DNA of 64,000 nucleotides from Escherichia coli. GTDB taxonomy: Bacteria > Pseudomonadota > Gammaproteobacteria > Enterobacterales > Enterobacteriaceae. The notes under the pieces were generated by a model. It saw only the letters and a program-made list of their open reading frames with translations. It did no database searches and was not told the origin of the DNA. A program made the translations under genes and the position numbers. Numbering within the stretch: position 1 is the stretch's first letter; each line of letters begins with the position of its first letter. The stretch lies in assembly GCF_011045215.1 (NCBI RefSeq), contig NZ_CP049201.1; one strand, given 5' to 3'. This document shows, one piece after another, positions 1 through 54,960 of the stretch.

Positions 1-1
1 T

Positions 2-733
2 GTCACCGACAGCGTCCATTGCCACGGTTCTGCGACCCTCATCGCCCAGGAAATCCGCCAGACGATTTTCAACGAGCTGCAACTGACGGCGTCTGCGGGC
101 GTGGCACCAGTAAAGTTTCTCGCCAAAATCGCCTCCGACATGAATAAACCCAACGGCCAGTTTGTGATTACGCCGGCAGAAGTTCCGGCATTTTTACAAA
201 CCTTACCACTGGCAAAAATCCCCGGCGTCGGCAAAGTCTCGGCGGCAAAACTGGAAGCGATGGGGCTGCGGACCTGCGGTGATGTACAAAAGTGTGATCT
301 GGTGATGCTGCTTAAACGCTTTGGCAAATTTGGCCGCATTTTGTGGGAGCGTAGTCAGGGGATTGACGAACGCGATGTTAACAGCGAACGGTTGCGAAAA
401 TCCGTCGGCGTGGAACGCACGATGGCGGAAGATATTCATCACTGGTCTGAATGTGAAGCGATTATCGAGCGGCTGTATCCGGAACTTGAACGCCGTCTGG
501 CAAAGGTAAAACCTGATTTACTGATTGCTCGACAGGGGGTGAAATTAAAATTCGACGATTTTCAGCAAACCACCCAGGAGCACGTCTGGCCGCGGCTGAA
601 TAAAGCTGATCTAATCGCCACCGCGCGTAAAACCTGGGATGAACGCCGCGGCGGGCGCGGTGTGCGTCTGGTGGGGCTGCATGTGACGTTGCTGGATCCG
701 CAAATGGAAAGACAACTGGTGCTGGGATTATGA
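2..733 (+). CDS. dinB: DNA polymerase IV, C-terminal part (gene starts upstream of window)
   Basis: Open frame from window edge; translation matches recalled DinB C-terminus ending ERQLVLGL. Confidence 0.85.
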   Translation, partial: VTDSVHCHGSATLIAQEIRQTIFNELQLTASAGVAPVKFLAKIASDMNKPNGQFVITPAEVPAFLQTLPLAKIPGVGKVSAAKLEAMGLRTCGDVQKCDLVMLLKRFGKFGRILWERSQGIDERDVNSERLRKSVGVERTMAEDIHHWSECEAIIERLYPELERRLAKVKPDLLIARQGVKLKFDDFQQTTQEHVWPRLNKADLIATARKTWDERRGGRGVRLVGLHVTLLDPQMERQLVLGL

Positions 734-1182
734 ATAACATACAAATAAGAAACTATCAGCCTGGCGATTTTCAGCAACTATGCGCTATTTTCCTTAGAGC
801 GGTTACGATGACCGCCAGTCAGCATTATTCACCACAACAAATTGCTGCCTGGGCGCAGATTGACGAATCTCGCTGGAAGGAGATACTCGCGAAATCACAA
901 GTGCGGGTTGCAGTCATTAATGCACAACCGGTTGGTTTTATTTCCCGCATTGAACATTATATCGATATGTTATTTGTTGACCCTGAATACACCCGCCGTG
1001 GGGTTGCCAGCGCTTTGTTAAAACCTTTGATTAAGTCTGAATCCGAACTTACGGTGGACGCCAGCATAACCGCAAAACCCTTTTTTGAACGTTATGGTTT
1101 TCAGACAGTTAAGCAGCAGCGCGTTGAATGCCGTGGAGCTTGGTTTACTAATTTTTATATGCGATATAAACCGCAACATTAA
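730..1182 (+). CDS. yafP: GNAT-type acetyltransferase YafP
   Basis: 150 aa ORF, ATGA overlap with dinB stop, matches recalled dinB operon position. Confidence 0.75.
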   Translation: MNNIQIRNYQPGDFQQLCAIFLRAVTMTASQHYSPQQIAAWAQIDESRWKEILAKSQVRVAVINAQPVGFISRIEHYIDMLFVDPEYTRRGVASALLKPLIKSESELTVDASITAKPFFERYGFQTVKQQRVECRGAWFTNFYMRYKPQH

Positions 1183-1415
1183 ATCCAGCTTGCAATGAAA
1201 ATAACGCCCGCCTGGTATGTGCGCGTTTTCTTATTCCACAAACTGCAAGGAGGTAAATCATGACAAATCCTTTATCAATGACTCTTTGCAGACCTTTCCA
1301 GGATTAATTCTTTTTTTCTTGCCCTGGATTCGTCTGCCATTTCCTGATTTTTATATTTATATACTCTAAATAATTCGAGTCGCAGTACATGCAACTTGAA
1401 GTATGACGAGTATAA

Positions 1416-1682
1416 ATGGAATGGTACATGGGCAAATATATTCGTCCCTTATCCGATGCGGTATTTACCATCGCATCTGATGACCTGTGGATCGAGAGTT
1501 TAGCGATCCAACAATTACACACCACGGCAAATTTACCCAACATGCAGCGCGTAGTGGGGATGCCAGATTTACACCCCGGACGCGGCTACCCGATTGGCGC
1601 AGCGTTCTTCTCTGTTGGTCGTTTTTACCCGACAAGACGTCGCTGTAACGGTGCTGGAAACAGAAACGGGCCGCTACTCTGA
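1416..1682 (+). pseudogene. RtcB-like RNA ligase fragment (ykfJ-like remnant)
   Basis: 88 aa ORF with RtcB-like N-terminal motif ([16 protein letters not shown]), far too short for intact RtcB; overlaps prfH frame. Confidence 0.4.
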
Positions 1683-2151
1683 CACGCTGCGTTCGGCGCT
1701 GGTTTCTCTGGATGGCGATAACGCATGGGCATTAAGCGAAAGCTGGTGTGGCACTATTCAGTGGATTTGTCCGAGTCCGTATCGGCCTCATCATGGGCGC
1801 AAAAACTGGTTTCTGGGCATTGGGCGTTTTACCGCTGATGAGCAGGAGCAATCCGATGCGATCCGGTATGAGACGCTGCGTTCGTCGGGGCCGGGTGGTC
1901 AACATGTCAATAAAACCGACTCGGCGGTACGCGCCACGCATTTGGCATCCGGTATTAGCGTGAAGGTTCAGTCAGAGCGTAGTCAGCATGCTAACAAGCG
2001 GCTGGCACGATTGCTGATTGCCTGGAAGCTGGAGCAACAGCAACAGGAAAATAGCGCAGTGCTGAAATCGCAGCGGCGAATGTTCCATCACCAGATTGAA
2101 CGTGGCAACCCGCGACGAACGTTCACAGGGATGGCTTTTATCGAAGGATAA
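1594..2151 (+). CDS. prfH: Peptide chain release factor homolog PrfH (GGQ motif)
   Basis: [16 protein letters not shown] motif typical of class I release factor family; position between yafP and pepD. Confidence 0.65.
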
Positions 2152-2163
2152 TGAAGGATGAAA

Positions 2164-2195
2164 CTGCCGGAAGGCGATTAAACGCCATCCGGCAG
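2164..2195. terminator. Bidirectional hairpin terminator between convergent prfH and pepD
   Basis: Perfect inverted repeat CTGCCGGA...TCCGGCAG with nested GGCG/CGCC stem. Confidence 0.45.
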
Positions 2196-2207
2196 CAAAT
2201 CAAATAA

Positions 2208-3665
2208 TTACTTCGCCGGAATTTCTTTCAGCAGTTCAGTCAGCAGTGTCCAGTAATGACCTACGCTTTCGATGTGAACTTGCTCATCCGGAGAGTGTGG
2301 ACCGGTGATTGTTGGCCCGATAGAAACCATGTCCATTTCCGGATACGGTTTTTTGAACAGACCACATTCCAGGCCCGCGTGGATAATCTGGATGTTCGGC
2401 GTCTTGTTGAACAGGCGCTGATAGGTTTCACGTACCAGATGCATCACCGGAGAATTAGCGTCCGGCTGCCAGCCAGGATATGCGCCTTTTGCTTCGGTTT
2501 TCGCGCCAGCCAGTTTACCCAGCGAATCCAGCATGCTCACCACGTAGTCTTTACCGCTGTCGATCAGAGAACGGATCAGGCAGTGAATTTCTACGTTATT
2601 GTCAGTCATGGTCACCACACCGACGTTCAGGGAGGTTTCGACCACACCTTTTGCCACGTCGGAATTGCGGATCACACCGTTCGGGGTGGCGTTCAGCAGA
2701 CGAATAAAGGTATCGCGAGATTTCGCAATCAGGGCAGCTTTATCGTTCGCTACAGAGTCCAGCAACAAGGCCAGATTTTTCTCTTTCTCTGCCAGCTCGT
2801 TTTTCAGGATCTCCTGATAGGTATTCACCAGAGATTTCAGGGTGTCGACTTTATCAGCTGCGACAGCAATGGTCGCAAAGGCTTCACGCGGGATGGCGTT
2901 ACGCAGTGTGCCGCCGTTGAAATCAATAAGACGCAGATCCAGTTCTTCTGCATGACCCGCCAGGAAGCGCACCAGCAGTTTGTTGGCATTACCGAGGCCA
3001 ACGTGGATTTCACCGCCGGAGTGACCGCCTTTCAGACCTTTTAAGGTTAACTTGAAGGTTTCAAAACCAGCTGGAACCGCTTCACGATCTAAATGCAGGT
3101 TGGAGGTGAAGTCGATACCCCCCGCGCAACCCATGTAGATTTCACCTTCTTCTTCGGAGTCGGTGTTAATCAGAATATCAGCCTGCAACCAGTTGCTCTG
3201 TAAGCCGAACGCACCGTCCATACCGGCTTCTTCGGTCATGGTCAGCAGCACTTCCAGCGGGCCGTGAACCACGTTTTCGTCAGCCAGAACCGCCAGCGCA
3301 GAGGCCATACCAATGCCGTTATCCGCACCCAGCGTGGTGCCGCGCGCTTTAACCCATTCGCCATCAATATAAGGCTGGATAGGATCTTTCGTGAAGTCAT
3401 GCACAGTGTCGTTATTTTTCTGCGGCACCATATCGAGGTGGGCCTGCAAGACGACCGGTTTACGATTTTCCATACCTGCGGTAGCAGGTTTACGAATCAG
3501 GATATTACCTACCTGATCGCGTTCGACATGGAAACCTTTCTCTTTTGCCCAACCAACAATGTATTCAGCGAGTTGCTCTTCATGATAGGACGGGTGAGGA
3601 ATAGAACAGATTTTGGCAAAAATATCCCACAGCGGCTGTGGAGATAATTGAGACAGTTCAGACAC
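2208..3665 (-). CDS. pepD: Cytosol non-specific dipeptidase (aminoacyl-histidine dipeptidase)
   Basis: 485 aa ORF, M20 peptidase-like sequence, conserved position next to gpt. Confidence 0.85.
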   Translation of the reverse strand: MSELSQLSPQPLWDIFAKICSIPHPSYHEEQLAEYIVGWAKEKGFHVERDQVGNILIRKPATAGMENRKPVVLQAHLDMVPQKNNDTVHDFTKDPIQPYIDGEWVKARGTTLGADNGIGMASALAVLADENVVHGPLEVLLTMTEEAGMDGAFGLQSNWLQADILINTDSEEEGEIYMGCAGGIDFTSNLHLDREAVPAGFETFKLTLKGLKGGHSGGEIHVGLGNANKLLVRFLAGHAEELDLRLIDFNGGTLRNAIPREAFATIAVAADKVDTLKSLVNTYQEILKNELAEKEKNLALLLDSVANDKAALIAKSRDTFIRLLNATPNGVIRNSDVAKGVVETSLNVGVVTMTDNNVEIHCLIRSLIDSGKDYVVSMLDSLGKLAGAKTEAKGAYPGWQPDANSPVMHLVRETYQRLFNKTPNIQIIHAGLECGLFKKPYPEMDMVSIGPTITGPHSPDEQVHIESVGHYWTLLTELLKEIPAK

Positions 3666-3925
3666 GTTAAGTCTCCTTGTCGATCACCCGCAAAACAGTA
3701 TTGCAGGTCACAGGGTTAGCAGAAAATGTTGTCAACACAAGACATGCTTGCGAGATATGTTTGAGAATACCACTTTATCCCGCGTCAGGGAGAGGCAGTG
3801 CGTAAAAAGACGCGGACTCATGTGAAATACTGGTTTTTAGTGCGCCAGATCTCTATAATCTCGCGCAACCTATTTTCCCCTCGAACACTTTTTAAGCCGT
3901 AGATAAACAGGCTGGGACACTTCAC

Positions 3926-4384
3926 ATGAGCGAAAAATACATCGTCACCTGGGACATGTTGCAGATCCATGCACGTAAACTCGCAAGCCGACTGATGCCT
4001 TCTGAACAATGGAAAGGCATTATTGCCGTAAGCCGTGGCGGTCTGGTACCGGGTGCGTTACTGGCGCGTGAACTGGGTATTCGTCATGTCGATACCGTTT
4101 GTATTTCCAGCTACGATCACGACAACCAGCGCGAGCTTAAAGTGCTGAAACGCGCAGAAGGCGATGGCGAAGGCTTCATCGTTATTGATGACCTGGTGGA
4201 TACCGGTGGTACTGCGGTTGCGATTCGTGAAATGTATCCAAAAGCGCACTTTGTCACCATCTTTGCAAAACCGGCTGGTCGTCCGCTGGTTGATGATTAT
4301 GTTGTTGATATCCCGCAAGATACCTGGATCGAACAGCCGTGGGATATGGGCGTCGTATTCGTCCCGCCAATCTCCGGTCGCTAA
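3926..4384 (+). CDS. gpt: Xanthine-guanine phosphoribosyltransferase
   Basis: 152 aa ORF with PRTase motif [11 protein letters not shown]. Confidence 0.9.
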
Positions 4385-4390
4385 TCTTTT

Positions 4391-4423
4391 CAACGCCTGG
4401 CACTGCCGGGCGTTGTTCTTTTT
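4391..4423 (+). terminator. Rho-independent terminator after gpt
   Basis: GC stem CAACGCC...GGCGTTG followed by TTCTTTTT. Confidence 0.5.
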
Positions 4424-4475
4424 AACTTCAGGCAGGTTACAATAGTTTCCAGTAAGTATTCTGGAGGCTGCATCC

Positions 4476-5720
4476 ATGACACAGGCAAACCTGAGCGAAA
4501 CCCTGTTCAAACCCCGCTTTAAACATCCTGAAACCTCGACGCTAGTCCGCCGCTTTAATCACGGCGCACAACCGCCTGTGCAGTCGGCCCTTGATGGTAA
4601 AACCATCCCTCACTGGTATCGCATGATTAACCGTCTGATGTGGATCTGGCGCGGCATTGACCCACGCGAAATCCTCGACGTCCAGGCACGTATTGTGATG
4701 AGCGATGCCGAACGTACCGACGATGATTTATACGATACGGTGATTGGCTACCGTGGCGGCAACTGGATTTATGAGTGGGCCACCCAGGCGATGGAGTGGC
4801 AACAAAAAGCCTGTGCGGAAGAAGATCCGCAACTCAGTGGTCGTCACTGGCTGCATGCGGCTACGTTGTACAACATTGCCGCCTATCCTCATCTGAAAGG
4901 AGATGACCTGGCCGAGCAAGCGCAGGCTTTGTCAAACCGCGCCTATGAAGAGGCCGCTCAGCGTCTACCGGGCACGATGCGGCAGATGGAGTTTACCGTA
5001 CCTGGCGGTGCGCCCATCACCGGCTTTTTGCATATGCCGAAAGGCGATGGCCCGTTCCCGACGGTATTAATGTGTGGTGGTCTGGATGCGATGCAGACGG
5101 ACTATTACAGCCTGTATGAACGTTATTTTGCGCCGCGCGGCATTGCGATGCTGACTATTGATATGCCGTCGGTGGGCTTTTCTTCAAAATGGAAGCTCAC
5201 CCAGGACTCCAGCCTGTTGCATCAGCACGTCTTAAAGGCACTGCCTAACGTACCGTGGGTGGATCACACTCGCGTCGCGGCCTTTGGTTTCCGTTTCGGC
5301 GCTAACGTTGCCGTGCGTCTGGCATACCTTGAATCGCCGCGTCTGAAAGCGGTTGCCTGTCTTGGTCCGGTAGTTCATACCCTGTTGAGTGATTTTAAGT
5401 GCCAGCAACAGGTGCCGGAAATGTATCTTGACGTTCTGGCGAGTCGTTTGGGGATGCATGATGCTTCCGATGAAGCGTTGCGCGTGGAGCTGAATCGCTA
5501 TTCATTAAAAGTGCAAGGATTGCTGGGACGTCGCTGCCCAACGCCAATGTTATCAGGCTACTGGAAGAACGATCCGTTCAGCCCGGAAGAGGACTCACGC
5601 TTAATCACCTCATCATCTCATGACGGTAAATTATTAGAGATCCCATTTAACCCGGTGTATCGGAATTTTGACAAAGGTCTTCAGGAAATCACCGACTGGA
5701 TCGAAAAACGCTTGTGTTAA
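4476..5720 (+). CDS. frsA: Esterase FrsA (fermentation/respiration switch protein)
   Basis: 414 aa ORF, alpha/beta hydrolase-like, conserved gpt-frsA-crl order. Confidence 0.8.
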
Positions 5721-6179
<459 letters not shown>

Positions 6180-6188
6180 GTGAAATGT

Positions 6189-6209
6189 GCCGGATGCATC
6201 ACATCCGGC
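6189..6209. terminator. Bidirectional terminator between crl and phoE
   Basis: Inverted repeat GCCGGATG-catca-CATCCGGC. Confidence 0.5.
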
Positions 6210-6217
6210 AATAATCA

Positions 6218-7273
6218 TTAAAACTGATAGGTCATGCCAACCGCGACAATATCATCATTATTAATATTCAATTTGTTATCGCTATCCAGTTGGTTGATTT
6301 TATAATCAACAAACGCTGACATATTTTTGTTGAAATAATACGTAGCACCGACGTCGATATAATTGACCAGATCTTCATCACCGATACCTTCAATATCTTT
6401 CCCTTTCGATAAGACATAACCCAGCGATGGACGCAGACCAAAGTCAAACTGGTATTGAGCGACCGCTTCAAAGTTCTGTGTCTTATTGGCAAAGCCGCCA
6501 GTTATTGGCGTCATTTTGCGAGTTTCAGAATAGAAAGTTGCCAGATAAATATTATTGGCATCGTATTTCAGACCTGTTGCCCATGCTTCTGCTCGCTTGC
6601 CTGTGCCACGGCTTTGCAGGTTCTGCTCGTTGGTGCGATCTGAGTTGGTATAGGCCCCACTAATGGCGAAATCGCTGCCGCCAAAGTCATATGTCAATGA
6701 CGTGCCGAAGCCATCGCCGTTTTGCTTTTTAACGTCGCGGTTTTCGTTTTTCCCTTGATATTGCAGGGTTAAGTTCAGACCATCGATAACGCCGAAGAAG
6801 TCGGTGTTCCTATACGTCGCCAGACCGCTGGCGCGTTTGGTCATAAAGTTGTCGGTCTGCGCCGAGGAGTCGCCACCAAATTCCGGGAACATATCGGTCC
6901 AGGCTTCCACGTCATACAACGCGCCCAGGTTACGGCCATAGTCGAAAGAACCCAAATCTTTATACTTCAATCCGGCAAAAGCGAGACGCGTTTTTTGCTG
7001 TGCAGTATCACTCTCCGCTTTATTTCCGGCAAACTCCGCTTCCCAACGACCATAACCAGTCAGTTGATCGTTAATTTGTGTTTCGCCTTTAAAACCAAAA
7101 CGGATATAACTCTGGTCGCCATCTTTACTGTCGTTATCACTCATATAATGCATGGCTTTAACTTTGCCATAGACATCCAGTTTATTACCGTCTTTGTTAT
7201 ATATTTCTGCGGCCTGTACGGATGCAGATGCCACAATGCCCATCACCACTAATGCCAGAGTGCTCTTTTTCAT
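6218..7273 (-). CDS. phoE: Outer membrane phosphoporin PhoE
   Basis: Signal peptide [21 protein letters not shown], porin C-terminal F; start placed at MKK rather than ORF-track MKM. Confidence 0.9.
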
Positions 7274-7346
7274 TTTCATTCCTGATTTTAATTAACGCGC
7301 GAATATTCTGCGGGAGAGCCCCGTTGAAAACAGGAAAGTTTTTAAC

Positions 7347-7373
7347 CTGAGATTGTTAAAGATATATTACAGA
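7347..7373 (-). promoter_or_regulatory. Pho box (PhoB binding site) upstream of phoE
   Basis: Reverse complement reads CTGTAATATATCTTTAACAATCTC, matching recalled phoE Pho box. Confidence 0.55.
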
Positions 7374-7560
7374 TTAATGATATTCTTAAAATGTGGTAAT
7401 TTAGTAAATCTGTAATAAAAGCGTAAACAACTGCCGCTACGCTTGCTGATCCCGCGCAACAAAACACCATGCTTTGCTCGCAGATGGTTGGCAACCGACG
7501 ACAGTCCTGCTAAAACGTTCGTTTGATATCATTTTTCCTAAAATTGAATGGCAGAGAATC

Positions 7561-8664
7561 ATGAGTGACAGCCAGACGCTGGTGGTAAAACTCGGCACCA
7601 GTGTGCTAACAGGCGGATCGCGCCGCCTGAACCGTGCCCATATCGTTGAACTTGTTCGCCAGTGCGCGCAGTTACATGCCGCCGGGCATCGGATTGTTAT
7701 TGTGACGTCGGGCGCGATCGCCGCCGGACGTGAGCACCTGGGTTACCCGGAACTGCCAGCGACTATCGCCTCGAAACAACTGCTGGCGGCGGTAGGGCAG
7801 AGTCGACTGATTCAACTGTGGGAACAGCTGTTTTCGATTTATGGCATTCACGTCGGGCAAATGCTGCTGACTCGTGCTGATATGGAAGACCGTGAACGCT
7901 TCCTGAACGCCCGCGACACCCTGCGTGCGTTGCTCGATAACAATATCGTTCCGGTAATCAATGAGAACGATGCTGTCGCTACGGCAGAGATTAAAGTCGG
8001 CGATAACGACAACCTTTCTGCACTGGCGGCGATTCTGGCGGGTGCCGATAAACTGTTGTTACTGACCGATCAAAAAGGTTTGTATACCGCTGACCCGCGC
8101 AGCAATCCGCAGGCAGAACTGATTAAAGATGTTTACGGCATTGATGACGCACTGCGCGCGATTGCCGGTGACAGCGTTTCAGGCCTCGGAACTGGCGGCA
8201 TGAGTACCAAATTGCAGGCCGCGGACGTGGCTTGCCGTGCGGGTATCGACACCATTATTGCCGCGGGCAGCAAGCCGGGCGTCATTGGTGATGTGATGGA
8301 AGGCATTTCCGTCGGTACGCTGTTCCATGCCCAGGCGACTCCGCTTGAAAACCGTAAACGCTGGATTTTCGGTGCGCCGCCTGCGGGTGAAATCACGGTA
8401 GATGAAGGGGCAACTGCCGCCATTCTGGAACGCGGCAGCTCCCTGTTGCCGAAAGGCATTAAAAGCGTGACTGGCAATTTCTCGCGTGGTGAAGTCATCC
8501 GCATTTGCAACCTCGAAGGCCGCGATATCGCCCACGGTGTCAGCCGTTACAACAGCGATGCATTACGCCGTATTGCCGGACACCACTCGCAAGAAATTGA
8601 TGCAATACTGGGATATGAATACGGCCCGGTTGCCGTTCACCGTGATGACATGATTACCCGTTAA
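7561..8664 (+). CDS. proB: Glutamate 5-kinase
   Basis: Starts [16 protein letters not shown]; PUA domain at C-terminus; ORF-track start 7474 is an upstream in-frame extension. Confidence 0.9.
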
Positions 8665-10043: not shown

Positions 10044-10119
10044 GCCGATATAGCTCAGTTGGTAGAGCAGCGCATTCGTAATGCGAAGGTCGTAGGTTCG
10101 ACTCCTATTATCGGCACCA
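10044..10119 (+). tRNA. thrW: tRNA-Thr (anticodon CGT)
   Basis: 76 nt GCCGATATAGCTCAGTTGGTAGAGCAGCGCATTCGTAATGCG...TCGGCACCA with anticodon loop tCGTa. Confidence 0.9.
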
Positions 10120-10133: not shown

Positions 10134-11297
10134 TTACACATCATTAGTACCTTCCTTATTTTTTGACTGGGACAAATTTGGGACCGATGGGTTCAGGATC
10201 GAGTCTATTTGCCGTGCGTGTTCGGTAAGGTGATTAGGTGCAAGGTGAGCATATCGACGAACCATTTCGATAGACTCCCAGCCTCCCATTTCCTGTAACA
10301 CTGACAACGGGACTCCGGCTTGAACCAGCCAACTTGCCCAGGTGTGTCTCAAGTCGTGAAATCTGAAATCATCAATACCAGCCCGTCTCAGCGCCGCTTT
10401 CCAGGCTGTGTTTGCGTCATACCGCATCTTCCTTACTGTTGGCGCTTTCGTTCCGTCTGGTTTGGTACAGCTTTCCTTGTACACAAATACCCAACGGTGA
10501 TGATTCCCGATTTGTTTTTTCAAAACGCGACATGCAGTATCATTCAGCGCAACGCCAATTGCGCGGTTTGATTTACTCTCTTCCGGGTTTATCCATGCCA
10601 CCCGGCGCTGCATGTCTATTTGTTGCCATTCAAGGTTGATGATGTTCGAGCGTCTTAAGCCTGTTGCCAGTGCAAATTCAACAACAGACTTTAATGGCTC
10701 CGGACATTCATCAATCAGCCTTTGTGCTTCATGGGGCTCCAGCCAGCGGATCCGTTTATTCTTTGGTTGAGGCACTTTAATAATTGGTGCCTTATCCAGC
10801 ATTTTCCATTCACGCTCTGCGGCTCTTAGTAGGGCCTTTATAAATGAAAGATGCGTAGCCTTCGTTGCAACGGACGCTGGTTTTGGCGTGTATTCTGGAA
10901 CAGGTTTCCCTTTTTTTCTGCATGCTTCTGCCCTGAGTCTCCAGTTTTCCTCATGACGCCGGTTCGTCATTTTCTGCATTGCTGAATAAATTTTTGATTC
11001 AGTAATGTCTCTTAGTTGCATTCCTGCGAAATGTTGAAGCCAGAATCCGATCCGGCTTTTGTCATCGTCCAGTGATTTTTTATGTGCTTTCTCTTCAAGC
11101 CACCTGACACACGCTTCCTCGAACGTTATATCAGGTATTTCACCAAGTTTGCTGACCCGCCATGCTTCAGCCTTTAGCTTGTCATGGAGTTCTGTCGCCT
11201 GCCTTTTGTCCTTTGTTCCAAGAGACTGTTTAAATCTTTTACCGTTCGGCAATGTGAAACTGGCGTACCATATTTCACCTCTGCGGAAGAGTGACAT
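10134..11297 (-). CDS. Phage integrase (tyrosine recombinase)
   Basis: C-terminal catalytic motif [10 protein letters not shown]...RRYAHL; adjacent to tRNA. Confidence 0.85.
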
Positions 11298-22093: not shown

Positions 22094-23425
22094 TTACTGG
22101 ATGAATGACATTTGATTAATATATTTTATCAATAACTCTCTGGGTGTAGTACTCCAAAAATTTAGGTGTTCATAATCAGTATAAACATTGGTGAATTTTT
22201 TAAGTTCTTCATCACTTTTAGGGGCAAATCGCTCATTAAGAGTAATACTGTCTTTAATTATTCCGAAGAATACAATAGATATTTCAGGAATTTGCGATCT
22301 TCTCTCATAAGAATAAGGTATTTCTTTTATGTTAAGCAGATCTGCTAAATGAGATATAGATTCTGCGGTAATTTCTTGTTTTAGTTTTTCCTTGTCACCA
22401 AAGCAATGTATGAAGACAGCTACGACAAAGATCTTATTTATTAAAGGATCACTGCTTTTGTACTCATCGTCGTTTAATAGTTGAAAAATGTTAAGATTGC
22501 GTGAAAAAGTTTGTGTTTCACGTAAGGATAAGTTGGTTCGTTGAATTAAATCACGGATAAATCTACCAGATAAACTATTAATTTCATTTAATGATTTTGT
22601 CTTGTCTACAAGGTAATTCCAATATATAACAGATGTTTTACATACGACGTGACCATTTATTAAACATGTGTCTGGAAGCGTGATGGTATATTTTATAAAC
22701 TTGTCAAGATACTTTTGTGAGTTAATACTATAACCATAAATATGATTTATCGATGCTTTTAATTGTTCTGTGTTTGTAACTAAAATAAAAAAGACATTAT
22801 TGATGTCAAAAATGTGTTTTATTGTTTCAATGACATTTGTTGAAAAACTCGGCTTACATCGGTCTAATTCATCAATTATAATTACTATCTTTTGACTTTC
22901 TGAAATGCTTTCGATGCAAGATTTAAGTGAATTTATGTTTTTCTCTGATTCCATATGGTCTTCAAGCAAATTTTCAATAGTCCCATCTATTGCTGCATTG
23001 CTTGCTTTCTTCATCGCATCTTGGAATTCTTCGGAAACTTCACTAGCCTCCTGTCGTAAAAACCAACCTGCACCAGCTTTTAGTACCGTTTTTAAACCAA
23101 AGCGAATTGCAGGAAGAGATCTCTTAATGAAGTGTTGTTTTTCTTCCTCAGGTAAAATGCTGGCAATTGCAGAGGTTATGAGAAGTAATGGAGATTCTGC
23201 ATGATCCCCTTTAAAGGCATCAATATAAACAACTTTAGATTCAGTTTCTTGCTCAATAATGAGATTTTTCAGTTTGATACTAAATTCTGTTTTCCCTGTT
23301 CCCCATGCGCCGTCTATTACCAGTGGTGAAATGTCTGCCTCTGGTTTTAGCAACTTGATGATATTTTCAGCGATGTTTCTGCGTTGGAACTCGTCACGTT
23401 CAGTGAAAGATAGTGTATCTAACAT
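22094..23425 (-). CDS. KAP-family P-loop NTPase (candidate phage-exclusion/abortive-infection protein)
   Basis: Walker A GAWGTGKT, Walker B IIIDELDRC; AT-rich; opposite strand in Q-to-lysis moron slot. Confidence 0.75.
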   Translation of the reverse strand: MLDTLSFTERDEFQRRNIAENIIKLLKPEADISPLVIDGAWGTGKTEFSIKLKNLIIEQETESKVVYIDAFKGDHAESPLLLITSAIASILPEEEKQHFIKRSLPAIRFGLKTVLKAGAGWFLRQEASEVSEEFQDAMKKASNAAIDGTIENLLEDHMESEKNINSLKSCIESISESQKIVIIIDELDRCKPSFSTNVIETIKHIFDINNVFFILVTNTEQLKASINHIYGYSINSQKYLDKFIKYTITLPDTCLINGHVVCKTSVIYWNYLVDKTKSLNEINSLSGRFIRDLIQRTNLSLRETQTFSRNLNIFQLLNDDEYKSSDPLINKIFVVAVFIHCFGDKEKLKQEITAESISHLADLLNIKEIPYSYERRSQIPEISIVFFGIIKDSITLNERFAPKSDEELKKFTNVYTDYEHLNFWSTTPRELLIKYINQMSFIQ

Positions 23426-27170: not shown

Positions 27171-27674
27171 GTGCCGCATATGGCTGGAACGGCGGGGCGT
27201 TCCGGGCGTCGCCCCAAGCCAACGGCGCGCAAGGCGCTGGCCGGAAACCCCGGCAAGCGAGCCCTGAACAAAGATGAACCTGTTTTTACGCCCATCAAAG
27301 GTGTTGAGCCACCGGAGTGGTTCGCAGAAGAAGATCTCCCTCTCGCCACGATCATGTGGCAACTGACAACCAAAGAACTCTGCGGTCAGGGCCTGCTGTG
27401 CGTGACTGACCTGGCGGTACTTGAGCGGTGGTGCGTGGCCTATGAGTTCTGGCGACGTGCCGTGAAAAATATTGCCAGCCAGGGCAACACCATCACCGGT
27501 GCAATGGGCGGCAGGGTCAAAAACCCGGAGCTGACCGCCAAGAAAGAACAGGAGTCCGAGATGAGCAGCACGGGGGCAATGCTCGGACTCGACCCCAGCA
27601 GCCGCCAGCGTCTGATAGGCCTGGCGGGGCAGAAGAAAGCCACTAACCCGTTTCTGAAAATCATCGAATCATGA
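27171..27674 (+). CDS. Terminase small subunit (P27-family-like)
   Basis: N-terminal [19 protein letters not shown] motif. Confidence 0.65.
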
Positions 27675-29404
27675 GCCGGAAATCTTACCCCAACGTAAAT
27701 GCTGCCAATCAGTATGCCCGTGATGTCGTGCGGGGAAAGATTGTGGCCTGCCATTTTGTGATTCAGGCCTGCCAGCGCCATCTTGATGACCTGATGGCGG
27801 AAAAAAGTAAGTCGTTTCGTTACCGCTTCGACAAGGACCTGGCTGAACGGGCCGCCAAATTTATTCAGCTGTTGCCGCACACCAAGGGTGAGTGGGCATT
27901 TAAGAGGATGCCCATCACGCTGGAGCCGTGGCAGCTCTTTGTGATCTGCTGCGCGTTTGGCTGGGTCAATAAAGGCTCCCGGCTGCGCCGCTTCCGTGAG
28001 GTGTATACCGAAATCCCCCGTAAGAACGGCAAATCGGCAATCTCTGCCGGTGTCGCCCTGTATTGTTTTGCCTGTGATAACGAGTTTGGCGCGGAAGTGT
28101 ATTCCGGTGCCACGACAGAGAAACAGGCGTGGGAAGTCTTTCGCCCGGCGCGACTGATGTGTAAACGCACACCCATGCTGACGGAAGCGTTCGGGATTGA
28201 GGTTAACGCCTCAAACATGAACCGTCCGGAGGATGGCGCGCGGTTTGAACCGCTGATCGGTAACCCCGGTGATGGATCATCACCCCACTGTGCGGTGGTG
28301 GATGAATATCACGAGCACGCCACCGATGCGCTTTACACCACGATGCTTACCGGGATGGGGGCGCGACGTCAGCCACTGATGTGGGCCATTACTACTGCCG
28401 GGTACAACATTGAGGGGCCGTGCTACGACAAACGGCGGGAAGTTATCGAGATGCTCAACGGTTCGGTACCCAACGATGAACTGTTCGGGATCATCTATAC
28501 CGTTGACGAAGGTGACGACTGGACCAACCCACAGGTGCTGGAAAAAGCCAACCCGAATATCGGGGTGTCGGTTTACCGTGAGTTTTTGTTAAGTCAGCAA
28601 CAGCGTGCGAAAAATAACGCCCGTCTGGCAAACGTCTTTAAAACAAAACACCTCAATATCTGGGTGTCGGCGCGTTCGGCGTATTTCAACCTGGTGAGCT
28701 GGCAGAGCTGCGAGGATAAATCACTGACTCTTGAGCAATTCGAGGGGCAGCCGTGCATTCTGGCCTTTGACCTGGCGCGTAAACTGGATATGAACAGCAT
28801 GGCGCGACTTTATACCCGCGAGATTGACGGTAAAACGCATTACTACAGTGTGGCCCCGCGTTTCTGGGTACCGTATGACACGGTGTACAGCGTCGAGAAA
28901 AATGAAGATCGCCGGACAGCCGAACGCTTTCAGAAATGGGTGGAAATGGGCGTCCTGACCGTTACCGATGGTGCAGAGGTGGATTATCGCTACATCCTCG
29001 AAGAGGCCAAAGCGGCGAACAAAATCAGCCCGGTCAGCGAGTCACCCATCGACCCCTTCGGGGCGACCGGGCTGTCACATGACCTTGCTGATGAAGACCT
29101 GAATCCCGTCACTATCTTCCAGAACTTCACCAATATGTCCGATCCGATGAAAGAGCTGGAAGCAGCGATTGAATCGGGACGTTTTCATCATGACGGCAAT
29201 CCCATCATGACCTGGTGTATCGGCAACGTGGTCGGCAAAAACATGCCGGGTAACGATGATGTGGTGAAACCCGTCAAAGAGCAGGCGGAAAACAAAATTG
29301 ACGGTGCAGTTGCGCTGATTATGGCGGTTGGCAGAGCCATGCTGTACGAGAAAGAAGACACGCTGTCTGATCACATTGAGTCCTACGGGATCCGCTCGCT
29401 TTAA
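27671..29404 (+). CDS. Terminase large subunit
   Basis: 577 aa ORF following small subunit, ATPase/nuclease-sized. Confidence 0.75.
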
Positions 29405-34716: not shown

Positions 34717-34887
34717 ATGTTTGTGAAACCTGTTAAAGGGCGGTCAGTTCCTGACCCTGCCCGCGGCGACCTTTTGCCCGCCGAAGGGCGAAATGTTGAC
34801 GAGAACAACTACTGGCTGCGCCGTGAAGCAGCGGGTGATATCCGGCGCGTGAATAAAAAGGTGAATACCGATGACGATAAGCTTTAA
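34717..34887 (+). CDS. Small protein upstream of sheath
   Basis: 56-codon ORF found by manual translation; not in ORF track. Confidence 0.25.
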   Translation: MFVKPVKGRSVPDPARGDLLPAEGRNVDENNYWLRREAAGDIRRVNKKVNTDDDKL

Positions 34888-36367
34888 CACCATTCCGTCG
34901 AATACGCTGGTTCCGTTGTTTTATGCGGAAATGGATAACTCGGCGGCGAATACTGCACAGGACAGCGGAGCATCGCTGCTGATTGGTCATGCCAATAACG
35001 GTGCAGAGATTGTTGCCAACAGTCTGGTACTGATGCCGTCGGCAGACTATGCACGCCAGATTTGTGGTGCGGGAAGTCAGCTGGCGCGTATGGTCGAGGC
35101 TTATCGCCAGACCGACCCGTTTGGTGAGCTGTATGTGATTGCCGTTCCTGAATCCACAGGCGCGGCGGCAACGGTTACGCTGACGGTGACCGGGGCGGCA
35201 ACCGAAACCGGCACGGTGAATGTCTATGTGGGACGTACCCGCGTGCAGGCTCCGGTGACCAACGGCGATAACGTCACGACGATTGCCAGCAGTATCAAAG
35301 ATGCCATCAATGCCGTTCCGGCCCTGCCGTTTACGGCTTCATCTTCGGCAGGCGTGGTCACACTGACCGCGCGTCATAAGGGGCTTTGCGGGAATGAAAT
35401 TCCTGTCAGCCTCAATTACTACGGCTTTGGTGGGGGCGAAGTGCTGCCAGCGGGCGTACAGATTGCCGTGGCGACGGGTACCGCCGGAACGGGTGCTCCG
35501 GTTCTCACCGGCGCGGTGGCTGCAATGGCGGATGAGCCGTTTGATTATATCGGCCTGCCGTTCAACGACACGGCCTCCGTTAACACGCTGATGACCGAGA
35601 TGAACGATACCAGCGGTCGCTGGAGCTATGCGCGTCAGCTGTATGGTCATGTGTATACGGCAAAGATCGGCACGCTGTCAGAACTGGTGACCGCAGGTGA
35701 CCAGTTTAACCAGCAGCACATTACCCTGGCGGGGTACGAAAAAGAGACCCAGACGCCTGCCGACGAACTGGCGGCAAGCCGTACCGCCCGCGCAGCGGTG
35801 TTTATTCGCAACGATCCGGCACGTCCCACGCAGACCGGTGAGCTGGTGGGTATGCTGCCTGCGCCGAAGGGGAAACGGTTCACGATGACCGAACAACAGA
35901 CCCTGCTGTCTCATGGCGTGGCAACGGCGTATGTCGAAAGCGGGGTACTGCGCATTCAGCGTGATGTCACCACGTACAGGAAAAACGCTTACGGGGTTGC
36001 GGATAACAGCTACCTAGACAGTGAGACTCTGCATACCAGCGCGTATGTACTGCGCAAACTGAAATCCGTCATTACCAGTAAGTACGGGCGTCACAAGCTT
36101 GCCAGTGACGGTACCCGCTTTGGTCCCGGTCAGGCGATTGTCACCCCGGCGGTGATCAAAGGGGAACTGCTGGCAACCTACCGTCAGCTTGAGCGTGCGG
36201 GGATCGTGGAAAACTACGCACTGTTTAAGCAGTACCTAGTTGTGGAGCGTGATGCCAGCGATCCGAACCGCCTGAACACGCTGTTCCCGCCTGACTATGT
36301 TAACCAGTTGCGTGTCTTTGCCGTGGTTAACCAGTTCCGTCTTCAGTATTCAGAGGAGTCCGCATAA
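34871..36367 (+). CDS. Tail sheath protein (Mu gpL-like)
   Basis: 498 aa ORF at head of contractile-tail module. Confidence 0.7.
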   Translation: MTISFNTIPSNTLVPLFYAEMDNSAANTAQDSGASLLIGHANNGAEIVANSLVLMPSADYARQICGAGSQLARMVEAYRQTDPFGELYVIAVPESTGAAATVTLTVTGAATETGTVNVYVGRTRVQAPVTNGDNVTTIASSIKDAINAVPALPFTASSSAGVVTLTARHKGLCGNEIPVSLNYYGFGGGEVLPAGVQIAVATGTAGTGAPVLTGAVAAMADEPFDYIGLPFNDTASVNTLMTEMNDTSGRWSYARQLYGHVYTAKIGTLSELVTAGDQFNQQHITLAGYEKETQTPADELAASRTARAAVFIRNDPARPTQTGELVGMLPAPKGKRFTMTEQQTLLSHGVATAYVESGVLRIQRDVTTYRKNAYGVADNSYLDSETLHTSAYVLRKLKSVITSKYGRHKLASDGTRFGPGQAIVTPAVIKGELLATYRQLERAGIVENYALFKQYLVVERDASDPNRLNTLFPPDYVNQLRVFAVVNQFRLQYSEESA

Positions 36368-37127: not shown

Positions 37128-39035
37128 ATGGCTGATAATTTTCAGCTGAAAGCCATCATCACCGCCGTTGACAGGCTATCCGGCCCGCTTAAAGGTATGC
37201 AGCGTCAGCTTAAGGGATTTCAGAAAGAAGTCTCCAGCCTTGCTCTGGGCGCTGCCGGGGCGGGTACTGCAATAATGGGGGCACTGGTACTCCCTGTAAA
37301 ATCAGCCATCACCCTTGAATCGAAGATGGCTGATGTCCGCAAAGTGGTGGACGGTCTGGATACGCCGGATGCGTTTAAGGCCATGACGGAGCAGGTGCGT
37401 GACCTGTCAACCGAACTGCCTATGTCGGCGGAAGGTATCGCTGAAATCGTGGCGGCGGGTGGTCAGGCCGGGATTGCACGTGATGAACTGATGCAGTTTG
37501 CCACTGATGCGGTGAAGATGGGCGTGGCCTTTGATACCACGGCTGAAGAGTCCGGGCAGATGATGGCCCAGTGGCGTACTGCGTTTAATATGACGCAGGA
37601 TGAAGTGGCCGGGCTGGCTGACAAAATCAACTACCTTGGTAATACCGGCCCGGCGAACGCGAAGAAAATCTCCGATATTGTTACGCGTATTGGTCCTTTA
37701 GGTGGTGTTGCAGGTGTGGCTTCCGGCGAAATCGCGGCAATGGGGGCAACCATTGCCGGGATGGGCGTGGAGTCAGAAATTGCCGCCACAGGGATCAAGA
37801 ACTTCATGCTTTCCCTGACCGCGGGAAATTCTGCGACAAAATCGCAGAAACAGGCATTGCGTTTTCTGCGGATCAATCCGAAGAAATTAGCTGCTGATAT
37901 GCAGAAAGATGCCCGGGGCACCATGCTATCTGTACTGGATGCGATGGCTAAAGTGCCTAAAGAAAAACGGGCAGCTGTGCTGAATGCCCTGTTCGGGAAA
38001 GAGTCTCTGGGCGCGATAGCACCTCTGCTGACTAACCTTGATTTGTTGCGTACCAACTTCAGGCGGGTTGCGGATTCCCAGCAGTATGGCAGTTCGATGC
38101 AGAAGGAATATGCTTCGAGGGCAGCGACGACGGAAAACCAGCTTTTACTTCTGCAAAATCAACTTGATGCCATTTCTTCCACGCTGGGGGAAACGTTTCT
38201 TCCTGAGGTTAATGATGGTCTTGAAGCGGTAAAACCGCTCCTTGAGGAAGTGAGAACGTTTGTCCGTGAAAACCCGGAGCTCGTTAAGACCATTGCTAAA
38301 ATCGGTCTGGCCTTACTGACGGTGGGAGCCGCTGCAGGCTCTTTGTCCAGAATTATGAAAGTTCTCGGCGGTGTGATGAATATGACGCCTGCTAAGGGGC
38401 TGATTGCTCTTCTGGTTGGTGGCGCTTACCTCATTATTGATAACTGGGAAACCGTAGGTCCTGTCATAAAAAAAGTCTGGCACGTGATGGATGAAACGGC
38501 GCAGGCGATGGGGGGATGGGAAACTGTTCTGAAAGCGATTGCCCTGTTTATGGCAACCAAATGGGTTGCTGACGTTACCAAATCCATTACCGCAGTGACC
38601 AGAGAGATGCGTACGCTGGGGAAGGTATCGGCAGAAACGGGATTGATGGGGAAAGGCCGCGGCTTTATCGGGAAGGCCGGGGTATATGGTTTTCTGGGAA
38701 CCCTGATGTATGAGCCGGTTAAAGATACTCTGGAAAGTGTTGTTCCTGAAGATACGGTTAACTGGCTGGATAATAAAGGGCTGTTTCTGGCTTCAGACTG
38801 GACGCCTTTTTTTGATCGTAAAGAGTACGAGCAATATCAGGCCAGCCTGAGTCAGTACAAACCCAATGTTCCGCTGTTGAATCCATCTTCTTCCATGACA
38901 CAGCACAGCGAGCTGAAAGTCACGTTCGAGAATGCTCCGCCAGGTATGAAGATAATTGATGTACCGGACAAAGCCGATCCCCTGATGAAAATCACGCACG
39001 ATGTGGGGTATTCCCCTTTTCGTTTTCCACGATAA
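37128..39035 (+). CDS. Tail tape measure protein
   Basis: 635 aa, Ala/Gly-rich with hydrophobic segments. Confidence 0.75.
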   Translation: MADNFQLKAIITAVDRLSGPLKGMQRQLKGFQKEVSSLALGAAGAGTAIMGALVLPVKSAITLESKMADVRKVVDGLDTPDAFKAMTEQVRDLSTELPMSAEGIAEIVAAGGQAGIARDELMQFATDAVKMGVAFDTTAEESGQMMAQWRTAFNMTQDEVAGLADKINYLGNTGPANAKKISDIVTRIGPLGGVAGVASGEIAAMGATIAGMGVESEIAATGIKNFMLSLTAGNSATKSQKQALRFLRINPKKLAADMQKDARGTMLSVLDAMAKVPKEKRAAVLNALFGKESLGAIAPLLTNLDLLRTNFRRVADSQQYGSSMQKEYASRAATTENQLLLLQNQLDAISSTLGETFLPEVNDGLEAVKPLLEEVRTFVRENPELVKTIAKIGLALLTVGAAAGSLSRIMKVLGGVMNMTPAKGLIALLVGGAYLIIDNWETVGPVIKKVWHVMDETAQAMGGWETVLKAIALFMATKWVADVTKSITAVTREMRTLGKVSAETGLMGKGRGFIGKAGVYGFLGTLMYEPVKDTLESVVPEDTVNWLDNKGLFLASDWTPFFDRKEYEQYQASLSQYKPNVPLLNPSSSMTQHSELKVTFENAPPGMKIIDVPDKADPLMKITHDVGYSPFRFPR

Positions 39036-50118: not shown

Positions 50119-50280
50119 CAACGTCTTTTCCCGTCTATTAAAATCCAAAAAACCCGCATATACTCTAGCTTTGAGCGCCCCCGATAGTGTTTTAACGTCT
50201 ATCAATATCTCCTAAAATCCACGTCTTTTGGGGGTATATTCGGGGGTATATGCTGTGTGGGCTACTGGAGATACCCCCAA

Positions 50281-51471
50281 ATGAAACTAAATGCCCGTCA
50301 GGTCGATACGGCCAAACCGAAAGAAAAACCCTATAAACTGGCCGATGGTGGTGGGCTTTATCTGCTTGTTAATCCCAATGGTTCCCGGTACTGGCGTTTA
50401 AAGTACCGGGTAGCCGGAAAAGAAAAGCTGTTGGCGCTGGGGGTATATCCCGATGTAACCCTGGCTGATGCCAGGGCGAAACGAGATGAGGCCAAAAGGG
50501 GTATGGCTGGGGGGATCGACCCGAACGAAGCGAAGCGGGAAGAAAAATTGAACCGCGAAGCGCAAATCAAAAACACCTTCGAAGAAATCGCCAGAGAGTG
50601 GCATACAGAACGGCAGAAGAAATGGTCTGAGGGGTACGCCTCGGACATTCTGGAAGCATTCAGTAAAGACATATTCCCTTGGATTGGAAAACGCCCCATC
50701 ACGGAAATAAAGCCCCTTGATTTGCTGAATACGCTTAAACGCATCGAGAATAGGGGAGCGACTGAAAAGGCCCGTAAGGTTCGCCAGTGGTGCGGGGAGG
50801 TCTGGAAGTATGCGATCGTTACCGCCCGCGCAGAATATAACCCCGCCCCTGATCTATCTGTGGCTATGGAAGGACACGAAGGGGAGCACTTCCCCCATCT
50901 GGAAGCCGAAGAGTTACCCGAATTTTTCCAGACGCTGGCGACGGCAAAAAGTAACGTTCAGGTTATTTTGGGGCTGCGTCTGCTTATTCTTGTGGGGTTA
51001 CGTCCGGTTGAATTACGCGCGGCCCCGTGGTCAGAGATTGATTTTGATAATGCCTTGTGGGAGATCCCCAAAGAGCGAATGAAGAAAAGACGTCCGCACG
51101 TTGTCCCGCTTTCTCGCCAGGCTATGGTTATTCTCGGGCAATTAAAAGAGTTGTCGGGCCGCAATCCTTTCATTTTTCCGGGCCGGAACGACCCGCGAAA
51201 GCCAATGAGTGAAGGAGCAATTAATCAGCTAATAAAGCGACTCGGGTATAAGGGCAAAGCTTGCGGGCATGGTTTCCGACATACCATGAGCACAATTTTG
51301 TATGAGAAAGGGTATAACACCGAATGGATCGAAACCCAGCTTGCACATGTTGATAAAAATACCATCCGTGGCACATATAATCATGCCCGCTATCTGGATG
51401 GACGCCGGGAAATGCTTCAATGGTATGCCGACTATATGGAATCGCTGGCGAGTGGCAGGGTAAAAGATTAG
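50281..51471 (+). CDS. P4-type integrase (tyrosine recombinase)
   Basis: N-terminal MKLNARQVDTAKPKEKPYKLADGGGLYL typical of P4-family integrases; catalytic HGFRHT... Confidence 0.85.
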   Translation: MKLNARQVDTAKPKEKPYKLADGGGLYLLVNPNGSRYWRLKYRVAGKEKLLALGVYPDVTLADARAKRDEAKRGMAGGIDPNEAKREEKLNREAQIKNTFEEIAREWHTERQKKWSEGYASDILEAFSKDIFPWIGKRPITEIKPLDLLNTLKRIENRGATEKARKVRQWCGEVWKYAIVTARAEYNPAPDLSVAMEGHEGEHFPHLEAEELPEFFQTLATAKSNVQVILGLRLLILVGLRPVELRAAPWSEIDFDNALWEIPKERMKKRRPHVVPLSRQAMVILGQLKELSGRNPFIFPGRNDPRKPMSEGAINQLIKRLGYKGKACGHGFRHTMSTILYEKGYNTEWIETQLAHVDKNTIRGTYNHARYLDGRREMLQWYADYMESLASGRVKD

Positions 51472-52020
51472 AGAAGGTCTAAGACGGGAATACCGCTAAA
51501 TTAGATGTTAGGCGTGGACACTCAGCATCCACGCTTAAACTTTTTATTATCATTTTCAATGAATTATGATTTTGGAAATTTTATAAAAAACACCAAGATT
51601 ACTAATCTATTGATTAATATGAAATATTTCTTTTTTTGATTATTAATTGTGCTCTTGATTGTTGTTTTTATGGTGTTAATTTATAAAAATCTTATTTATA
51701 GGAATTAACATTATATAGTTGGCACTTTTTGCTAAAATCTGTTTTTATTGTGTTTTATTTTTATTTCATTTTTGTTGTTGTTTGTTTGATTTTTAGTGTC
51801 TTTATATCTGGCTAATTGATTTCACTCAAACCATAAATCCTTTCAGAGGCTTCTAGAGTCTTCCTGAGGCTTAAATTGACTTAACTAAAAGTCAAGCCCC
51901 ACATCCCACATACATCTTTTTGACATGCACTTATGGCGTGAATAACAATGACTTCATCCAATCTACAGGCATCCTATAAAGTCAATGTCTGTATATAGAA
52001 AGATATTACATAACGTTTGA

Positions 52021-52260
52021 ATGTTAATAGCGGGTGTGAATATGAGAAATGATGCAATGCAGCTTTTAAACCAGGGAAAAAGATTGATCCGCCTGCCTGA
52101 AGTTATGATGCTTACGGGGCGGTGTCGCGCCAGTATTTATAAAGATATCAATGCAAATGTCTTTCCAAAGCCGATTAAAACCGGCCCGCGTTCTGTCGCA
52201 TGGGTTGAGGGTGAGATCAGCGACTGGATCGACAACAAAATCAAAGAGCGCAAAGTGTAA
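52021..52260 (+). CDS. AlpA-family transcriptional regulator
   Basis: RLIRLPEVMMLTGRCRASIYKDI...FPKPIK.GPRSVAWVEGEISDWI; start may be 52057. Confidence 0.7.
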   Translation: MLIAGVNMRNDAMQLLNQGKRLIRLPEVMMLTGRCRASIYKDINANVFPKPIKTGPRSVAWVEGEISDWIDNKIKERKV

Positions 52261-52459
52261 ATCTGATTTTATTCAGAGATGAATATGATTTATTTGAATG
52301 CTAAGGATTTTGTGTATTCTTTTTGTTGTAAATACTCGTAGCATGGGGAGTTGGCAGTATTTATTCAGTATTAGGTTAAGTAGTGATAAAATACCAGGTA
52401 ATGCCGGTTTATGCAGTGTTTAATATATTTGTTGCTGGCGAAAATTTACGGAAAATTAA

Positions 52460-53332
52460 ATGAACATTACTGATATTATCAGCCATCGCGTATATCGTGA
52501 TGCGGATCTTGCTGTCATTAATAACACGGCATTTATTCAGCCTTATGACGGTTGTCACCGTGGGTTGTATGAAATGCGCGTTATTGAACTTTATCGCCTG
52601 AATAAAATGATGCACCTTACCCACGAATATAAATCTATTTCCGGGGAAAGCGTAGGCATTCCGGCGACTAAAGAGGAACTGTTTACACTGGTTAATAAAG
52701 GGCATGAACTTTGCCAGTCTGAACGGGAAAAGCTGGCGGCACTTGAAGCAGAATTGCAGCGTCTGCCAAGCCCGGCTGTAATTCCTGCGCCGCAGACGAT
52801 TAAAGAAGCACAGCAGGCCCGTAAATCACTAGAAGATGAAAGATACAGACTGCATCACGCAGCAATTAAAAATCAAGTCAAAGCACAGCAGGAAGAGTTA
52901 TCCATCAGACAAAACATTCTGGAATTGCTCGCGCCGGTTATTGATGTGTTGTTGGCCGTGGAAGATGTGGAACTGCTCGATCTGCGCCGTTCCCTGCCTA
53001 AGTCATCCCTCGATGCTAAGGCATTCAAAAAGGCGATTTCTGAAATTGAGTGTGCTGACCTTGCCTGGCAGAAAATGGATAAACTGGAGATTGCCCTTAA
53101 CAAGGTGGTGAACAACTGCACATATCGCCCGGAAGGAAGCATTAATCCCCGTTTTGTTAACCCTCTTAATGAAGATAAGCGGGAACGCGCCGAAATATCA
53201 CGCGATTATTACAGCTCTGAAATGGCCTTTATTCATACGGTGATGAGTGCAGATGAATATTTAAATTATATGTTGCCGATCCGTCACCAGCAGCGCGCGC
53301 AACGACTCACATTAGAAAGAAATATCAACTAA
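52460..53332 (+). CDS. Coiled-coil protein (possible scaffold or capsid-size factor)
   Basis: 290 aa with long predicted helical/coiled-coil central region; immediately upstream of capsid-like gene. Confidence 0.4.
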   Translation: MNITDIISHRVYRDADLAVINNTAFIQPYDGCHRGLYEMRVIELYRLNKMMHLTHEYKSISGESVGIPATKEELFTLVNKGHELCQSEREKLAALEAELQRLPSPAVIPAPQTIKEAQQARKSLEDERYRLHHAAIKNQVKAQQEELSIRQNILELLAPVIDVLLAVEDVELLDLRRSLPKSSLDAKAFKKAISEIECADLAWQKMDKLEIALNKVVNNCTYRPEGSINPRFVNPLNEDKRERAEISRDYYSSEMAFIHTVMSADEYLNYMLPIRHQQRAQRLTLERNIN

Positions 53333-53341
53333 GGAAGAATT

Positions 53342-54753: not shown

Positions 54754-54769
54754 GCTGGAAACTCTTAAG

Positions 54770-54870: not shown

Positions 54871-54960
54871 GTTTGCTACGTTGCAAACTGAAAAAACGAA
54901 GCCCGGCAGTGTTGACGCACTAACCGGGCCTCTGACCAACACGTTATTAGGAGTAACGCT

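Follow-up and report, generated by a model that had tools for sequence, protein, structure and literature searches.

The interval between yafP and pepD in Escherichia coli raises the question of whether the pieces of an RNA ligase gene and of a release factor gene that it contains still form a working ribosome-rescue system and, if not, how this system was lost. We addressed this question for the window, i.e., the whole stretch of 64,000 nucleotides that was analysed, which is an E. coli chromosome segment with the gene order dinB-yafP-[rtcB2'/'prfH]-pepD-gpt-frsA, followed by crl. A sequence-only reading of this DNA had described an rtcB-like fragment that overlaps the start of a GGQ-containing prfH-like open reading frame (ORF), and this description was borne out: two plus-strand ORFs, 1416-1682 (88 aa) and 1594-2151 (185 aa), overlap by 89 bases and match the RtcB2 equivalog NF007153 and the PrfH family TIGR03072, respectively, at levels far beyond chance. 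Their start codons, ATG at 1416 and TTG at 1594, are mechanical calls, neither of which is native, and position 1304, where the same reading had set the beginning of the feature, is located within the yafP-rtcB2 spacer and does not mark any boundary of a remnant. As detailed below, the region is almost certainly the inactive scar of an rtcB2-prfH ribosome rescue-and-repair operon, the allele known from K-12 as ykfJ/prfH. The features of the locus are as follows.

Window start to 733: dinB, partial at the left end of the window
730-1182: yafP, preceding the region under study
1183-2151: rtcB2'/'prfH region, between yafP and pepD
1183-1427, plus strand: yafP-rtcB2 spacer (operon leader), without the K-12 72-bp ERIC-like insert, containing an invariant Shine-Dalgarno sequence and mini-ORF
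1428-1631, plus strand: 5' remnant of rtcB2 (ykfJ), an RNA ligase gene of 379 codons, of which codons 1-68 remain
1626-1634, no strand: deletion junction, one TACCCG copy kept (1626-1631) and extended to the imperfect 9-mer TACCCGRCA
1627-2151, plus strand: prfH 3' remnant, codons 31-204 and stop, own start codon absent
1632-1682, plus strand: out-of-frame tail of the rtcB' ORF, 16 codons and a stop (1680-1682) running through prfH sequence
1894-1902, plus strand: GGQ motif (ggt ggt caa; PrfH G120-G121-Q122), intact in the window allele
2164-2195, no strand: inverted repeat CTGCCGG...CCGGCAG between the convergent prfH' and pepD, read from the sequence
2208-3665, minus strand: pepD, convergent with prfH', then gpt, frsA and crl

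The yafP-pepD interval of the window comprises 1,025 bp and was matched in 5,417 of 5,426 complete E. coli genomes, with identities of up to 99.9%. Upstream of it, the dinB stop codon overlaps the yafP start codon (ATGA at 730-733) and, thus, the yafN-yafO toxin-antitoxin pair is absent from the window. This pair is present in K-12, O121 and O157, and its absence is shared with CFT073 and B1-type intact strains; OkiPb01695, PapM-32-1 and Ec-042-T20 also combine the deletion allele described below with the lack of yafNO. Across positions 1-8000, the closest of the 5,426 genomes is that of PapM-32-1, a baboon isolate, at only 99.1%, indicating that the strain of the window is not closely represented in this set. 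Judged by these comparisons, the local haplotype is a mosaic, the segments of which occur in different lineages.

Remnants of rtcB2 and prfH

The 88-aa ORF matches NF007153 with an E-value of 1.4e-30, but only at profile positions 1-69 of 379, and TIGR03073 (release_rtcB) at 2.2e-28. Its 106.6 bits fall far below the cut-off of 407 for a full-length RtcB2 (NF007153/TIGR03073; about 379 aa expected), and its Pfam RtcB score of 23 remains under the cut-off of 27 because so little of the domain is left. Orthologous descent from rtcB2 is evident from the yafP-pepD interval shared with CFT073 and from the near-identical N-terminus, the remnant being 99.1% identical at the DNA level, as aligned, to CFT073 rtcB2 (L002:2776-2979). 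About 88 residues of RtcB had been taken to survive; the fragment is indeed purely N-terminal, but only 68 of the 88 residues (1428-1631) derive from RtcB, as the first four stem from an upstream in-frame ATG which is unused in intact homologues and the last 16 result from out-of-frame reading of prfH. Translation of rtcB' reaches ...GRFYP at the junction and then continues into these 16 residues, a shift of frame caused by the 3n+1 length of the deletion. As the remnant stops at residue 68, it contains neither the metal-binding core nor the catalytic His294 (AHGAGRK) of EcRtcB2: both this histidine and the metal-site motif NDIGCG (residues 73-78; Asp/Cys) reside in the deleted block. In OkiPb01695 and O121, PGAP accordingly labels the rtcB2 interval 'RtcB family protein, missing C-terminus'. 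The RtcB2 ligase is a pseudogene that has lost 311 of its 379 residues.

The 185-aa ORF scores 276.4 bits against TIGR03072 (release_prfH; E = 1.1e-82), above the cut-off of 166.65, and thus belongs to this family by score, although it covers profile positions 31-200 of 200 and lacks positions 1-30; the Pfam RF-1 match is at 2.3e-24. Its first 11 residues are rtcB sequence out of frame, and true PrfH begins with Thr31 (1627), from which the frame is open to the stop codon. Over its full length, this part aligns with residues 31-204 of E. coli PrfH in the cryo-EM structure PDB 7SA4 (chain 8) with an E-value of 2e-116 and two substitutions, and it includes the GGQ motif for peptidyl-tRNA hydrolysis, the Q122 of which is the catalytic glutamine that was mutated by Tian et al. 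2022 (PMC9304027). The N-terminal ribosome-recognition domain is incomplete, residues 1-30 and the native ATG being deleted, and PGAP labels this piece 'missing N-terminus'. The translational coupling is gone as well: in CFT073, prfH starts at 3912, ahead of the end of rtcB2 at 3915, and this overlap falls within the deleted sequence. Hence, the sequence-only reading was correct in considering the ligase partner pseudogenised, in that rtcB2 is truncated, but the damage is not confined to the ligase, since the same deletion also removed the start codon, the coupling and the first 30 codons of prfH.

Breakpoints of the deletion

The alignment with an intact rtcB2-prfH locus that the earlier reading had proposed was carried out with the CFT073 operon as reference (L002: rtcB2 2776-3915, 379 aa; prfH 3912-4526, 204 aa) and mapped a single deletion of 1,027 bp. 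On the left, window 1412-1631 aligns with L002 2760-2979 at 99.1% identity; on the right, window 1626-2300 aligns with L002 4001-4675 at 96.0%. The two alignments share six bases, TACCCG, which are present at both CFT073 breakpoints, the left copy being located at L002:2974-2979 (TACCCGGCA) and the right copy at 4001-4006 (TACCCGACA), so that the 1,027 bp (3n+1) extend between equivalent positions of the two copies. In the nine intact alleles compared, the left repeat is TA[C/T]CCGGCA and the right repeat T[A/G]CCCGACA, which makes them an imperfect 9-mer. The term 'decayed', which suggests gradual erosion, does not describe the locus well, since a single clean deletion between short repeats accounts for the lesion.

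We infer slippage or microhomology-mediated joining as the mechanism. The deletion between the short direct repeats joined codon 68 of rtcB2 to codon 31 of prfH out of frame, and deprived PrfH at once of its start codon, of its coupling to rtcB2 and of the first 30 residues of the ribosome-recognition domain. Neither truncated product would be expected to work, leaving the carrier cells without the ribosome-repair defence.

Frequency and origin of the deletion allele

A junction-spanning 100-mer was found, at a coverage of at least 80%, in 2,687 of the 5,426 complete E. coli genomes. Sequence of the deleted interior was recovered from 2,715 genomes, with a coverage of at least 80% in 2,675 of these. 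Together, the two counts come to about the 5,417 genomes that have the locus and account for essentially all of them. The deletion is thus carried by about half of the sequenced E. coli, a feature that is real but ordinary. Searches with variant-specific 56-mers for two junction types returned 1,123 and 1,932 genomes; these counts are not exclusive, since the O157-type (1632 A, 1644 G) is included in both, and only the combined 2,687 is a firm junction count. PGAP calls both pieces partial pseudogenes in O121, 17MR471, O157 and OkiPb01695, as it does in every deletion allele that was opened, and in MG1655 the pseudogenes ykfJ (b0235) and prfH (b0236) are annotated at the same position. The deletion alleles sampled fall into the following junction haplotypes (bases at window positions 1632/1644).

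K-12, 17MR471, AHB5: G/G
O157 OK1, PapM-32-1: A/G
Window, OkiPb01695: A/T
O121: A/T, plus A at 1645
Ec-042-T20: G/G, plus T at 1628

The most trivial explanation would be an artefact of sequencing or assembly in a strain that really has the intact operon. Such a reading draws its only support from the caveat of the earlier note that a full-length RtcB frame might be recovered by correcting a sequencing error. We rejected this rescue: 1,027 bp are missing rather than a single base, the junction is identical base for base in thousands of independently finished genomes (2,687 in the present set), and the flanks are collinear with the intact locus, so that the chance of an artefact is negligible and the verdict of an RtcB pseudogene stands. 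A more serious alternative is a recurrent deletion at the imperfect 9-bp repeat, with different crossover points that yielded TACCCGGCA in the K-12 type and TACCCGACA in the window type. The two junction variants do match the left-repeat and the right-repeat version, respectively; the backgrounds on which the deletion occurs vary in the presence of yafNO and of the ERIC-like insert; and the right flank of K-12 is nearer to that of B1-type intact alleles (8 of 520 sites differ) than to that of the window (14 of 520). Against recurrence, the window, K-12 and O121 do not differ in the left flank (spacer and rtcB'), and this one haplotype in the sampled deletion alleles is unlike every sampled intact allele, all of which differ at 3-11 sites. 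Moreover, the junction variants form a stepwise mutational chain from G/G to A/G, A/T and A/T plus 1645A, with O157 and PapM-32-1 providing the intermediate. The shuffling of yafNO and of the 72-bp ERIC-like insert across the junction haplotypes is explicable by recombination, and the right flank is a mosaic in which one SNP cluster of the window also occurs in the intact allele of isolate 68. Recurrence thus appears rather unlikely, and the likelier history, in our view, is that the deletion happened once, long ago, before point mutation and recombination in the flanks diversified the allele.

It might still be argued, as the sequence-only reading implies, that only the ligase is dead and that a truncated PrfH (about residues 31-204, or a shorter form starting at the in-frame GTG 1651, the annotated start in K-12) is made and retains some GGQ-dependent or regulatory activity. 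The frame is open and the GGQ motif intact, and a reviewer of Baranov et al. 2006 (PMC1586002) remarked that expression had never been checked and pointed to Pel et al. 1992, where the ORF had been proposed to be expressed. In addition, substitutions in prfH' that are private to deletion alleles comprise four non-synonymous and seven synonymous changes, 'private' being defined relative to nine intact alleles only and in a flank that recombines; intact alleles show 12 and 34, respectively, while drift would be expected to yield about 76% non-synonymous changes. On its face, this low ratio would not look like free decay, but the 'private' class is unreliable. With a sample of only nine intact alleles and clear signs of recombination in the right flank, most of the variation in prfH' was probably imported from selected intact genes. 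The absence of the start codon, of the Shine-Dalgarno context and of the coupling to rtcB2 argues against an active remnant, as does the loss of 30 residues that include a central beta-strand of domain 2, which recognises the ribosome (PMC1586002), and a sigma-70 promoter scan of 1100-2300 found no consensus-like site. Furthermore, AHB5 and Ec-042-T20 carry a secondary, frame-breaking deletion of 169 bp between GCAT repeats, equivalent to window 1816-1984 (at about 3100-3140 of L005 and 3130-3140 of L006), which removes the GGQ motif. About 700 of the 5,426 genomes lack the segment concerned, roughly a quarter of the deletion alleles if all of these genomes carry the deletion allele like both sampled cases. 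Finally, knockouts of the truncated genes in BW25113 did not exhibit a colicin E3 phenotype (PMC9223846). Residual activity is therefore very improbable, and in view of the secondary deletion and the published null phenotype we judge with little remaining doubt that the prfH remnant is non-functional. It might also be speculated that the near-even split of intact and deleted alleles represents a maintained presence/absence polymorphism of an anti-colicin-E3/CdiA defence, shaped by cost and benefit rather than by neutral decay, with a residual role for the low-N:S prfH remnant where GGQ is kept; we consider this rather unlikely.

Further alleles illustrate other routes of change at the locus. 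In LZSFT34 (L007 1376-2513), rtcB2 is full-length but frameshifted and adjoins an intact prfH, an independent route of inactivation. In isolate 68 (L014 4148-5024), genes for a metal-dependent hydrolase and a hypothetical protein are inserted between prfH and pepD, and PrfH has an altered C-terminus (...FVAV).

Relation to known systems

The anatomy, the breakpoints and the population frequency reported here were computed in this study, and the function of the intact operon and the non-function of the truncated one are taken from the literature. That an intact RtcB-PrfH pair is a ribosome-rescue module, as the sequence-only reading had noted, agrees with published work (PMC9304027, PMC9223846). 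In the work of Tian et al. 2022 (PMC9304027), ribosomes with 16S rRNA cut by colicin E3-type toxins were shown to be rescued by intact PrfH and repaired by RtcB2. When 16S rRNA cleavage by colicin E3 or CdiA-type toxins stalls ribosomes in intact strains, PrfH frees the peptide and RtcB2 then religates the rRNA. The same authors presume both rtcB2 and prfH of K12 to be inactive owing to the deletion. In the study of Maviza et al. 2022 (PMC9223846), colicin E3 sensitivity stayed the same when the truncated genes were knocked out in BW25113, whereas knockouts of the intact genes sensitised ATCC 25922. The locus of the window is orthologous to this intact RtcB2-PrfH operon (CFT073, ATCC 25922; PMC9304027, PMC9223846; PDB 7SA4), with 96-99% identity in the retained sequence and conservation of the GGQ motif and of the C-terminal part of PrfH, but it misses 1,027 bp and hence the catalytic core of the ligase, the N-terminus of PrfH and the start codon. 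The window allele is therefore, by analogy, expected to confer no protection against 16S rRNA-cleaving toxins.

The lesion itself has been described before. Baranov et al. 2006 (PMC1586002) reported prfH of K12 as truncated at the N-terminus, with a deletion of about 1,000 nt in K12, W3110 and O157:H7 that covers the C-terminal portion of the upstream gene together with the N-terminal portion of RFH, and found the RFH locus intact in CFT073, 042 and UTI89; any product was argued to lack a central beta-strand of domain 2. Our finding thus repeats the discovery of a known pseudogene pair, which has been part of the K-12 annotation for decades, was accounted for in 2006 and again in 2022, and had not been named in the sequence-only reading. 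The window shares with ykfJ (b0235)/prfH (b0236) of K-12 the position between yafP and pepD, the 1,027-bp deletion and the retention of RtcB2 1-68 and PrfH 31-204. It differs from K-12 in having A instead of G at 1632 and T instead of G at 1644, at 14 of 520 sites in prfH', and in lacking the 72-bp ERIC-like insert in the spacer and yafNO upstream. Compared with the RF-H/prfH pseudogene survey of Baranov et al. 2006 (PMC1586002), in which the same lesion is described without base-level breakpoints, microhomology, population frequency or secondary deletions, the present analysis adds the exact breakpoints and their microhomology, the allele frequencies, the series of junction haplotypes and the frequency of the secondary 169-bp deletion. 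As a discovery this carries little weight; its use is as a genotype marker for the RtcB2-PrfH defence. Strains with the deletion allele, including that of the window, are predicted to lack RtcB2-PrfH repair of cleaved 16S rRNA and hence to be sensitive to colicin E3-type ribotoxins, and the breakpoints, the counts (2,687 deleted versus about 2,715 intact among 5,426) and the secondary deletion provide a simple scoring scheme for E. coli collections.

Flanking sequences and other elements of the window

Within the yafP-rtcB2 spacer, a strong Shine-Dalgarno sequence, AAGGAGGT (1247-1254), is followed by an ATG at 1260 that opens a mini-ORF of 15 codons (1260-1307), encoding MTNPLSMTLCRPFQD and ending in a stop codon. 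The mini-ORF and its Shine-Dalgarno sequence are nucleotide-invariant in 18 of 18 alleles compared, intact and deleted, and unannotated in MG1655; the mini-ORF may encode a leader peptide of the rtcB2-prfH operon. An overlapping upstream ORF of 22 codons (1195-1263) was rejected as a gene, as stops interrupt its frame in all intact alleles, and the fold of the leader RNA was not significant (z = -1.53). The spacer is polymorphic for insertions and deletions: in K-12-type alleles, window positions 1376 and 1377 are separated by a 72-bp ERIC-like repeat (...GTGAATCGCCAGGAGCTTACATAAGTAAGTGACTGGGGTGAACG...), and in B2 strains such as CFT073 the sequence corresponding to window 1355-1411 is missing entirely. 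Downstream, the inverted repeat at 2164-2195 is probably a terminator hairpin shared by prfH' and pepD, although it was not called by the terminator scan. An Rfam scan of the whole window yielded one tRNA and no other RNA family.

Further into the window, a tRNA-Thr(CGU) gene (thrW, 10044-10119) is directly followed by a tyrosine integrase gene (10134-11297, minus strand) and a contractile-tailed prophage, the whole spanning 10044-49000. At least 80% of the segment 10000-34000 is held by only 48 of the 5,426 genomes. The prophage includes the following genes.

22094-23425, minus strand: KAP NTPase
27671-29404: large terminase
34871-36367: tail sheath
37128-39035: tape measure

The interval 50257-59376 encodes another integrase, which contains an arm-binding domain (50257-51471), as well as a DUF927/Toprim/zinc-ribbon primase-helicase (56614-59376), an arrangement which suggests that a second element, P4-like or of the satellite type, lies in tandem with the prophage.
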